64,000 nucleotides of DNA from NCBI GenBank assembly GCA_964633285.1, contig CAZWGA010000001.1, forward strand, positions 126,038-190,037. The letters are read 5' to 3'. This DNA is from an uncultured Solibacteraceae bacterium. Lineage in GTDB: Bacteria > Acidobacteriota > Terriglobia > 20CM-2-55-15. The position numbers were made by a program. Each line of letters starts with the position of its first letter. Positions within the stretch are counted from its first letter, which is position 1. Shown one piece after another: positions 45,001 to 48,000 of this stretch.

Positions 45001-48000
45001 CAGCATCCGCAAGCGGCTGGATGGCAAATGACGGGGTAAGCGGGAGAATCGTCTTTAGGACTGCCGCAGCGAACCCATCCAGTATGAGGCGATGATTTGG
45101 AGGGAACGAACACATGATGGGTCTGCTCAATGCACCTTGTCAGCCACATTACTTGCAAAGAAAACAAAGCATCGCCTTTCAAAATTTGTCGCGTTTGTAG
45201 CGGCAACTGCGATTTCTTCTTGCCAGGGCGGCGACTATTCGCGCGAGCGAATGCCGGCTGCGAAGCAATTCCATTTTTACTGCGGATGCGGAGCGTCCCT
45301 GCAGTTTTGAGATCCTGGTGATGGAATGGCCCTCGATGTAGAAGAGATCGAGCAGTTCGCGTCTTGCAGGAGGCAGCCGTTCGAGAGCGATACGCAGCAA
45401 TTCAAGGCGGCGGCTCAGGTCAATATCAAATTCGAAAGATGGCAATTGGGAAATAAAACGAGGGTCGATATCAGCGAGATCTTCATCGCAGCGGTGCCGG
45501 CGCCAGCGGTCGGTTACGGCATTTTGAACAATCTTCATCAACAGCGCACGCGGATGAGTTACACGCTCAAGCCGTCGAAAAGCTTCGAGGGCGCGCACCG
45601 CCACGTCCTGCTCAAGATCTTCATCATGGACAGGTGTGCCTGTTTGTCTCGTCGCCCGATGAACCAGCGCGCGAATGTCCGATGGTGTGAAATTCATGTG
45701 ACCGTTCTCCTCGTGTTGCGGCTATACCTAACATGATTGGCAAAAGCGAATTGATGCAGAAGCTCAGAGAAAGAATAAGAATGGCGGCTCGTGTTTCCGG
45801 TTCTGTTCTCGTCACCGGTGAATCGGGGACAGGAAAGGAGCTTGTGGCCAGGGCAATCCATATGCACAGCGAGCGGGGCAATGGAAAGTTTGTCGCCGTC
45901 GATTGCGGCGCACTTCCCGATGATCTGATCGAGAGCGAGCTCTTCGGACATCGCCGCGGGGCTTTTACGACGGCATTGACCGACAAGCCGGGCCTGTTTG
46001 AAGAAGCGAACGGTGGCACGTTATTCCTCGATGAAATTGGGAACACTTCAAAACGTTTTCAAGCCAAGCTGCTTCGCGTTTTGCAAGACCGCCAGCTCCG
46101 GCGTCTGGGAGACGTGATTCTTCGACAGCTCGATTTACGTGTAGTCGCGGCAACCAACTGTGATGTTGCCGGTCTCGTGCGTCGAGGTGACTTTCGCGAA
46201 GATCTTTACTATCGGCTGAATGTGTTCGCGATTCAGGTGCCGCCGCTGCGCCGCCGACTGGAAGACGTGCCCCTGCTCGTGCATCACATCCTTCAAGGCA
46301 GAAAAGGAATTCACGAAGACGCTGTCGCGAAACTCATGTCCTACAGTTTTCCGGGGAACATCCGGGAGTTGGAAAACATCGTGGAGGCGGCGATCTGCAC
46401 TTCGGCTAGTGATCTGATCCAAAACGAAGATGTCGTCCTGCCTCATGAAAATGCCCGGCGATGGCCGGTCGAAGATGTGATTGTAGGAAACTTCTGGGAT
46501 TCGGTAGCAAGGCCATATGCGCAGCGCTTGATCACGAGAAACCAGATGGAACATGTGATTCGGCAGGGTCTCGAGCGAACGAACGGCAGCTACAGAGGAC
46601 TCTTGCCCTTGTTCCATATTCCAGATTCGGATTACAAGAGGTTTATGGACTTCCTGCGGCGGCATCATTGCAAGGTCGATTTCCGGGAATATCGAAAGTG
46701 AGAGCTTCACTGTCCGCCGAGATCCTGAAACAGTTTGACGACGAAATCGCCCATCAACAGATGCTGTGTCCGGGCAACGAACTCGCGATAAGCACGGCTG
46801 CAGTGATAGTCGAGACATTCGTCTCGTGTCCTCCACAGTGTGAGTGAGACGGCCATTCGGCCGTCTTCCTCGACCATCAGGCGAGCCGACTCCAATCCTG
46901 GTTCTCGTCTCAGTTTGGGCAGGACCTCGTGAATATAGATGCGTGCAAATTCCTGCACTTGATCTCTGCTGACGGCTTCACCGATGACCATACGCGCGTA
47001 CATGTGTATTACTTCTTTGCGCGTTTCGCGATGATCGATTCCTTGACCTTTTCATACTGCTCTTTCGTGAGCAGTTGATGTGTTACCAGATCGTGCTTGT
47101 TCCGCCACGGACGGCCTTCGACGATCTTTTTCGCGGCGGCCTTTTCAATCCCCACCGCTGCGATATCCGCCTCTGTTGCCGTATTGATATCGACAACCTT
47201 CGGCACATTGATCGGCCGAATTGGTGTTCTCGGCATCTCTTTCACTTGAGCGCTGACCGCCACCGTCCATACGAGAGCAAGCACAACAATCCCGACAAAG
47301 TTTCGACGTAACATGTTTTCTCCTTTCGAATTGAAAAAATCCACCGGCGGCCAACGCCTTGCGGCCCTTTGCCCATTACCCGAATACGCAAGCGCGCCCC
47401 CAGGCCGCCGGTCGATCGTGGTCGAAAACACGCGGTGAGGATCGGAAGGAACCGGCCCTACCTGCCCACTTCCGAAATTCAGCGCACCGCGCGGCCATGA
47501 CATCGGCCGTCATGACTAAGGCATGTCGATGTCCATCGATAAGTTGTTGAGGGAGCAGAGAGGCAGTTAAAAAGGTCGCGCTTTTAGCGGTCGCGAAAGT
47601 CGCGGATTACTCGCACAATTCGTTCGGCAGCGTGTCCATCCCAGTATTCCGGAGGGCCCGAAGGCTTCCAATCTCGATTGATGATTCTCTGAAAGGCATC
47701 AAGGATCCTTTCGGGATCGGTTCCGACCACGGTGTTCGTTCCATGATTGATGGTGACGGGTCTTTCCGTGTTGTGGCGGAGAGTGAGGCACGGAACGCCA
47801 AGAATCGTCGTTTCCTCCTGAAGTCCACCCGAATCGGTAAGGACGACGGTCGCTGTCGATTCCAGATTCAGAAACTCCAGATATCCGAGCGGGTCCATGG
47901 TCCGAATGCCCTGCGTCGAAAAACCAAACTCGTGAACCCGCTTCGCTGTTCGCGGGTGAATCGGAAAGAGTACTGGAACTCTTCTGGAGATTTCGGACAG

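Follow-up and report, generated by a model that had tools for sequence, protein, structure and literature searches.

Some bacterial enhancer-binding proteins (bEBPs) – the AAA+ activators of sigma-54 RNA polymerase – have been described without an N-terminal regulatory domain, and others with a departure from GAFTGA, the loop that contacts sigma-54. Both features meet in the protein discussed here, which is encoded at 45733-46701 on the forward strand of a 64,000-nucleotide (nt) stretch of DNA from an uncultured Solibacteraceae bacterium (assembly GCA_964633285.1, contig CAZWGA010000001.1, positions 126,038 to 190,037; the whole stretch is referred to as the window). Of similar build is PspF, the phage-shock activator of Escherichia coli, likewise devoid of an N-terminal regulatory domain, with a short C-terminal DNA-binding region and some 320-330 amino acids (aa) in length; its loop is the canonical GAFTGA, it has an HTH_8 domain, and PspA, the product of a neighbouring gene, controls it in trans. 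The window bEBP aligns to solved PspF chains over residues 2-251. Unlike PspF, however, it carries GAFTTA, has a C-terminal domain that is not HTH_8 and lacks an adjoining PspA-like gene, and the PspF models score it below their cut-offs (TIGR02974, 231.2 vs 443.55; NF008622, 197.4 vs 529).

Receiver-less, too, are HrpR and HrpS of Pseudomonas syringae, which, like the window bEBP, are coupled to an extracytoplasmic function (ECF) sigma factor – HrpL in their case – without an anti-sigma factor (PMC8999054; PMC3105312). HrpRS nonetheless activate a sigma-54 promoter of hrpL, whereas the window ECF gene has no sigma-54-type site upstream; and HrpR and HrpS form a co-dependent pair, whereas the window locus holds a single bEBP gene and no HrpV-like gene. 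Neither a PspA-like nor an HrpV-like protein was found among the conserved neighbours of the bEBP gene (ECF sigma, ABM and HHH_3), although such a regulator may be encoded elsewhere. A third comparison is with PrsR (TIGR02915), a sigma-54 activator tied to PEP-CTERM and exopolysaccharide (EPS) loci and described in Proteobacteria (PMC1569441). PrsR has a receiver, a Fis-type helix-turn-helix (HTH) and a kinase partner, PrsK; the window bEBP has no receiver and scores 258.9 against the TIGR02915 cut-off of 502.6, over profile positions 141-407 only (the AAA+ part), so that identity with PrsR is ruled out.

As for the loop, its second glycine – G266 of NorR – has been changed in an engineered series in which S and N keep activation while escaping repression by the regulatory domain; in the window bEBP, by contrast, the altered loop is natural, conserved and part of a protein without such a domain. 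Natural non-glycine residues at this position occur in two Desulfovibrio vulgaris proteins, DVU2106 (GAFTDA), which we take to be OrpR, and DVU2894 (GAFTHA), the latter, like the window bEBP, having no N-terminal domain. Both were treated by the authors who reported them as sigma-54-competent, with regulons predicted or tested, and GAYTDA and GAFSEA are further natural loops of that species (PMC4641369, which cites Fievet et al. 2011 for DVU2106). They differ from the window bEBP in the residue itself (D or H), in phylum, in DNA-binding domain and in regulons. The loop of VfmH is also given as GAFTDA in the literature. The saturation mutagenesis of NorR, the only one of this glycine that we found, left D, N, Q, S, C and M active, D and N fully constitutively so, and indicated that the glycine is needed for docking of the regulatory domain and not for the sigma-54 contact itself; NtrC G219K is inactive (PMC2941729). 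A non-glycine residue at the fifth position of the loop is therefore already known in nature, but threonine there is unreported, the string 'GAFTTA' having no occurrence in a full-text literature corpus of 8 million.

The window gene and the parts of its product are these:

45733-46701, forward strand: bEBP gene, 322 aa plus stop, with an AAA+ sigma-54 interaction domain from residue 1, an AAA lid and a conserved C-terminal helical domain.
45817-45840, forward strand: Walker A, GESGTGKE, residues 29-36; G29, E30, G32, G34, K35 and E36 are invariant in the family alignment.
45958-45975, forward strand: L1 loop, GAFTTA, residues 76-81; codons ggg gct ttt acg acg gca.
46021-46041, forward strand: Walker B region, LFLDEIG, residues 97-103, placed by translation, structure-chain alignment and family alignment.
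46459-46698, forward strand: conserved C-terminal domain, residues ~243-322, FW..VARPY..R.ITR..[..]GLERT.GSY..LLPLF.IPDSDYKRFMDFLRRHHCKVDFREYRK, without a Pfam model.

The Pfam Sigma54_activat profile (PF00158) is matched over its whole length, positions 1-168 of 168, by residues 1-168 (E=1.3e-65), with the AAA lid next, and the scan of the protein returned no match to REC, GAF, PAS or HTH_8. Solved chains of FleQ, NifA, ZraR, NtrC1 and PspF are matched with E from 1.7e-67 to 1e-50, and identity to canonical bEBPs is 50-56% in the AAA+ core; the NCBIfam models for NifA, NorR, NtrC, PrsR and PspF match below threshold and in the AAA+ part only. The motifs GESGTGKE, LFLDEIG, ATN, FREDLYYRL and GNIRELEN are all present and are invariant over 41 orthologues; the Walker A and B, sensor I and II and arginine-finger roles are assigned to them from the alignment and from what is known of PspF. 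No other bEBP is encoded in the window, and an exact database look-up of the 322-aa protein gave no record. A full-length AlphaFold2 (AF2) model, poor in the AAA+ core (pLDDT 60), was left unused.

A longer N-terminus is ruled out, because the first in-frame stop 5' of the ATG, the TGA at 45688-45690, lies 45 nt upstream – with no ATG, GTG or TTG in between – and the divergent ECF sigma gene lies there as well. The orthologues agree with this. More than 100 are available from Terriglobia/Acidobacteria, drawn from soil metagenomes and from metagenome-assembled genomes; they are full-length and share the same start, and full-length identity is 72-79% for the best 120 cluster representatives, most of which have 316-324 aa. 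None has a receiver at its N-terminus. Gene calls of 385-459 aa do occur among them, but these are artefacts, the extra part being the translated antisense strand of the ECF gene; together with the in-frame stop and the upstream ECF gene, they dispose of an upstream start or a lost receiver. So many full-length, strongly conserved orthologues also rule out a pseudogene or a truncation. The original prediction, which had been made for this DNA without database searches, described a protein beginning at the AAA+ core without REC, GAF or PAS domain, divergent from an ECF sigma gene (here 45179-45697, reverse strand, across a 35-nt spacer) and acting as a stand-alone, possibly constitutive or partner-regulated enhancer-binding protein; on all of these points it holds. 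From its domain content, the protein can be classed as a stand-alone bEBP without a cis regulatory domain, and it must therefore be constitutive, controlled through its expression or controlled by a partner. It belongs to a genuine, conserved and as yet uncharacterised sub-family of minimal bEBPs in soil Acidobacteria.

The loop variant was likewise called correctly. Residues 76-81 pair one-for-one with GAFTGA in two solved chains, 6jdi_A ('Nitrogen assimilation regulatory protein') and 9qq6_C (NifA), so that the second glycine is replaced by threonine (residue 80) and the other five positions are kept. Wherever the loop of an orthologue could be parsed it read GAFT[T/S/N]A – T being commonest, S second and N found once – apart from a few cases of GSFT(T/S)A. 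In the 41-orthologue alignment, G76, A77, F78, T79 and A81 are invariant and position 80 alone varies (T, S, N), the pattern expected if the loop keeps its sigma-54 contact. The GAFTTA-type loop is kept across the orthologues and is therefore a family trait and not a lesion. The closest same-length relative beyond the clade (P0142, 55% identical) has GAFTGA, and the Gly-to-Thr/Ser change thus arose inside this lineage and was retained there. To call GAFTGA nearly invariant, as had been done, overstates the case at this one position, where D or S is present in ~12% of 135 unrelated bEBP loci; T is confined to the present family. Among the 150 nearest cluster representatives (P0121-P0270) – a biased sample of related sequences – position-5 variants account for 9/27 bEBPs without an N-terminal domain as against 7/124 others (Fisher p=2.6e-4), which is consistent with a glycine constrained mainly by regulatory-domain docking. 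Of the residues that the family uses at position 80, S and N support sigma-54 activation in NorR (PMC2941729).

The C-terminal region had been described as a short basic segment; it is in fact a conserved helical domain, residues ~243-322, that terminates 108 of the best 150 50%-cluster representatives. These include proteins of 1600-1800 aa, and the two that were checked have a Pkinase-AAA_16-TPR-(GAF)-sigma54 architecture. Across this wider set the consensus is ..FW..V..P...R.[LI]sR..v...GL..t.GsY..l...f.lp..dYKrFm.FL..h.C.vDFRpYR. That the C-terminus is not a clear Fis-type HTH was right in so far as Pfam does not cover the domain and HTH_8 finds no match in it even at E<=10. Nonetheless, hhalign aligns it in register with the canonical HTH_8-type C-termini of bEBPs (78% probability, E=1.7e-5), pairing EHVIRQGLERTNGSYRGLLPLFHIPDS with their helix-G-N-helix-turn segment, and an AF2 model of the domain alone (pLDDT 75) has helices at model residues 23-32, 38-51, 56-62 and 67-79, the long/short/long layout of a Fis-type HTH. 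Judging by this alignment and model, the domain is probably a divergent Fis-type HTH that binds DNA. A search with the C-terminal 88 aa alone matched only fragments of the same family.

A match of the C-terminal profile to the EF-hand-like S100A3 among PDB sequences (E=0.02) was rejected as spurious, the calcium ligands being replaced; the stretch concerned, DYKRFMDFLRRHHCKVDFREY (46600-46698, residues ~298-322), is weakly like the second EF-hand of S100A3. Cys313 is invariant in the bEBP family and common across the wider clade.

Around the gene, the window has the following features:

45179-45697, reverse strand: orphan ECF sigma factor gene, 172 aa, the obligate divergent partner of the bEBP gene; no anti-sigma gene could be recognised beside it.
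45698-45732, between the two genes: divergent control region, 35 nt, GTGACCGTTCTCC-N7-GCGGCTATACCTAAC.
46707-47003, reverse strand: ABM-domain protein of 98 aa, whose gene converges on the bEBP gene and is kept in every orthologous locus that reaches that far.
47009-47503, reverse strand: HHH_3 (ComEA-like) protein, a conserved neighbour.
45146-45130, reverse strand: GG-N10-GC two-block element TGGCTGACAAGGTGCAT, of sigma-54-type spacing, just before the exporter remnant.
44378-45130, reverse strand: deletion-fusion exporter/adaptor remnant, a 250-aa open reading frame made of exporter residues 176-278 followed by HlyD-type adaptor residues 51-102 and 211-263.
39459-39474, forward strand: sigma-54-like site AGGTATGATGGTTGCA, 25 nt before the PEP-CTERM gene, with the GG-N10-GC arrangement and 9/12 consensus positions.

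The ECF sigma and bEBP genes occur together in every orthologous locus, and the ECF family is equally narrow and is found on the same contigs. Wherever an orthologous locus extends far enough, the ABM and HHH_3 genes accompany this pair as well; the distant receiver-less relatives L008 and L011 (GSFTGA) have none of these neighbours. A conserved form of the control region, CAT-GTGACCGTTCTCC-N7-GCGGCTATACCTAnC-ATG, is shared across loci, with a spacer of 35 nt in most. It contains the GGAG Shine-Dalgarno sequence of the ECF gene and, 14 nt 5' of the bEBP ATG, the heptamer CGGCTAT, invariant in 15/15 loci, while the bEBP gene itself, whose start codon is ATG in every case, lacks a Shine-Dalgarno sequence. 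Its mRNA may have a short leader or none, or else the heptamer may serve as an operator; no consistent second copies of the spacer motifs were found elsewhere in the loci. A scan of 44300-47600 for sigma-70 promoters and terminators returned nothing beyond chance. The ECF literature notes ECF257 for 'ABC transporters and AAA ATPases'; its model protein is from a Firmicute.

Beyond the ECF gene, several orthologous loci (L001/L088, L091, L164 and P0024) carry an export cluster. It encodes a small double-glycine-leader peptide, in some cases two (MTRLTSAELVSIQGG|..., MEQLKDEELYEIEGG|...), an ABC ATPase with a permease (an immunity-type ABC transporter), a C39-peptidase ABC exporter (PCAT; 493 bits with TIGR01193, just below the cut-off of 524) and a HlyD-type adaptor, the last missing or only a remnant in P0024 and L164. 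From this gene content, the cluster is predicted to serve bacteriocin-like peptide production and export. In the window it has collapsed to the deletion-fusion remnant beside intact ECF and bEBP genes, and in L004 and L005 it has been lost entirely.

It is before the exporter gene that the most consistent DNA element was found. In all 10 lineages that keep the exporter or its remnant beside the ECF gene, a sequence yGG-N8-[G/T]TGCA[A/T] (TGCG in L096) is present, which with L164 makes 11 loci in which it precedes an exporter gene or remnant; its two blocks are at exact GG-N10-GC spacing, and the sequences between them are unrelated among loci. Where the PCAT gene is intact (L087, L092, L096 and L164), the element lies ~14 nt before its ATG. 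L164 is informative here: its PCAT gene, separated from the ECF gene by 2.7 kb and preceded by 630 nt of intergenic DNA, still has the element, CGGCCACCCACGTGCAT, 14 nt before the ATG, which means that the element belongs to the exporter gene. As the background GG frequency in these regions is 0.07, a GG at a fixed offset over some nine independent lineages is far beyond chance. When the 133 kb of orthologous loci were scored on both strands with the 12-position pattern TGGCACG-N4-TTGCW, 14 sites reached at least 10/12. Five of these cluster within a single 200-nt stretch immediately 3' of the ECF gene and on its strand, although the L092 site among them is within PCAT coding sequence and not at a promoter position. 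Candidate sigma-54-type sites thus do exist near the bEBP gene.

The same 630-nt region of L164 (7660-8140, reverse strand) contains repeats of AAAAGGAGCGCGCGCG: two direct copies, at ~8121 and ~8060, and an inverted one, at ~7690, which lies ~100 bp upstream of the GG-N10-GC element and is a candidate enhancer seen in L164.

Taken as a whole, these data are best explained by a functional minimal bEBP in which an ATPase-competent AAA+ core, joined to a divergent HTH-like C-terminal domain, remodels sigma-54 polymerase – an explanation to which we would give about an even chance. Hexamers would assemble on DNA and remodel sigma-54 RNA polymerase by ATP hydrolysis and the L1 loop GAFT(T/S)A; and since the protein has no sensor domain, its output would be set either by its amount, through the 35-nt control region shared with the orphan ECF sigma gene, or by a trans-acting partner. 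The best candidate target in the lineage would be the GG-N10-GC element ~14 nt before the exporter start codon in the double-glycine-peptide cluster. That both regulators have stayed intact in the window although the cluster there has decayed implies other targets elsewhere, among which may be genes of the envelope or of EPS formation, the PEP-CTERM gene for one. An otherwise invariant loop and an intact ATPase make dependence on sigma-54 the reading with the best support.

A number of observations weigh against this explanation. Sigma-54 dependence is what we infer from the protein, rpoN being beyond the reach of a 64-kb window, and neither Foldseek with the C-terminal model nor a sequence-profile search of the PDB gave a significant match for the putative DNA-binding domain. 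At the exporter, the candidate promoter implies a leader of only 4-6 nt without a Shine-Dalgarno sequence. The sites before the peptide genes (L001/L088, L091 and L164; TGGAAC-N6-TGT/TGG/TTC) have no GC at -12, and TGGAAC could be read just as well as an ECF -35 element. Loci without the exporter, for example L005, have no element and yet retain the ECF/bEBP pair. An enhancer-like palindrome common to the candidate promoters, such as the original prediction had proposed to look for, was not found. Lastly, all NorR substitutions other than the six active ones were non-functional, T included by exclusion (PMC2941729), and the proposal that a Gly-to-Thr change may alter sigma-54 engagement is accordingly a reasonable one.

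The leading rival would make the bEBP sigma-54-independent, in the manner of TyrR, the NtrC of Rhodobacter and Caulobacter, or VpsR, acting at the control region or at other operators on sigma-70 or ECF-type promoters to repress or activate, for instance, the promoter of the partner ECF gene. We consider this unlikely, although it has more to be said for it than any other alternative. In relatives known to work without sigma-54 the loop is lost or scrambled as a whole, whereas here five of its residues (G, A, F, T and A) do not vary and the ATPase motifs are intact. The scored-dead threonine of NorR speaks for sigma-54 independence, but S and N, the other residues that the family has at position 80, are active there (PMC2941729). 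Also in its favour are the extreme conservation of the 35-nt control region and the CGGCTAT heptamer, the lack of an anti-sigma partner for the ECF gene, and the absence of a conserved GG-N10-GC at a fixed position before either gene (19 loci on the ECF side, 14 with sufficient upstream DNA on the bEBP side). In addition, a preprint presents Caulobacter NtrC as an unconventional bEBP.

A dedicated PEP-CTERM regulator, as originally proposed, would make the protein a receiver-less functional analogue of PrsR, activating the PEP-CTERM/EPS locus through sigma-54; we regard this as improbable. PEP-CTERM genes in Proteobacteria are typically sigma-54/PrsR-dependent, and the layout in the window – a single gene (39499-40251) after a 256-nt intergenic region with a GG-N10-GC – matches the one described there by Haft et al. 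(PMC1569441); the protein is, moreover, the only bEBP in the window, and EPS genes lie to the left of the ECF/bEBP module in four lineages. In the same direction, only two of the six GG-N7-S-K-TGCA matches in the window, the PEP-CTERM site and the exporter-remnant site, are intergenic and correctly oriented. Against this, the PEP-CTERM gene is 6 kb away with unrelated genes between, the bEBP falls below the PrsR cut-off and has no receiver, and a sigma-70-like TTGACA-N16-GATACT, starting at 39419, lies just upstream of the candidate site. That site does exist, as had been claimed, but with 9/12 positions it is of a quality no more frequent in the window than expected by chance; a strict sigma-54 consensus scan likewise gave no excess (19 matches vs 29 expected). 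Nor do the PEP-CTERM upstream region and the bEBP locus share sequence, a comparison of the PEP-CTERM upstream region, the exporter upstream region and the 35-nt spacer for a shared enhancer having yielded one 8-mer only. Among 17 orthologous neighbourhoods with DNA, the PEP-CTERM gene occurs in the window alone (0/16 others). The proposed link is thus possible but unsupported and not conserved, and a looser link of the bEBP to the cell envelope or EPS is possible.

The PEP-CTERM gene itself forms part of a large EPS-type island (~27993-42772) with GT1, GT2 and GT4 glycosyltransferases, a carbamoyltransferase, GDSL esterases, a methyltransferase and a PMT_2-like protein; it is the one PEP-CTERM gene of the island. 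Three relatives have Wza, Wzc, Wzy or Bac_transf genes at the equivalent position.

Less probable still is a cascade of the HrpS/HrpL type, in which the bEBP would switch on the ECF gene from a sigma-54 promoter, with the exporter and other genes then driven by the ECF sigma factor. The architecture – a receiver-less bEBP beside an ECF gene without an anti-sigma – is that of HrpRS and hrpL (PMC8999054; PMC3105312), and the two genes strictly co-occur. There is, however, no conserved GG-N10-GC within 300 nt upstream of the ECF start, and its absence before either gene argues against such a cascade; the 35-nt spacer is too short for a -24/-12 promoter and a leader; and the ECF gene is disrupted beside an intact bEBP gene in two assemblies, by an internal deletion in L002 (7611-7965) and a frameshift in L164 (~9630-10145), although these could be either real decay or assembly errors. 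The least probable reading is that the L1 loop has been retuned for RNA polymerase carrying the partner ECF sigma, or that its conserved T/S hydroxyl is a regulatory phosphorylation site, the latter idea being suggested by clade relatives fused to Ser/Thr kinases; either would mean a bEBP-type motor outside, or newly gated within, the sigma-54 paradigm.

If the protein is a minimal sigma-54 activator, as we favour, it is also one that is easily overlooked: a sigma-54 regulon survey will often admit a protein only if its loop is exactly GAFTGA (e.g. PMC12316311), and families of the GAFT(T/S)A type are therefore dropped unnoticed. A conserved natural family of this kind offers a ready-made test of how much the sigma-54 contact loop tolerates; threonine was scored dead in NorR. 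The pairing with an orphan ECF sigma factor and the C-terminal domain held in common with giant kinase-bEBP fusions point, furthermore, to unexplored regulation in abundant soil Acidobacteria.

Several minor observations concern the surroundings of the ECF gene. On the far side of the exporter remnant, the product of 43065-44315 (forward strand; 416 aa) has a signal peptide, a FecR domain at the borderline (23.9 bits vs a cut-off of 24), a hydrophobic segment in mid-protein and a C-terminal half rich in Ala, Gln and Asn. It is conceivable that this FecR-like protein is a sensor or anti-sigma for the orphan ECF sigma factor; no fetched locus gave a tblastn match to the FecR-like or the PEP-CTERM protein, and two relatives have ~402-aa proteins without a Pfam match at the position of the FecR-like gene. 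Downstream of the ECF gene in L004 (6700-6960, reverse strand), there are several copies of a palindromic element resembling repetitive extragenic palindromes (..CTGTAGGC.CGGTCTATGACCGC.C..). Between the convergent FecR-like gene and the exporter remnant of the window, a hairpin with a perfect 14-bp stem and a T-run (44340-44370) looks like a bidirectional terminator.

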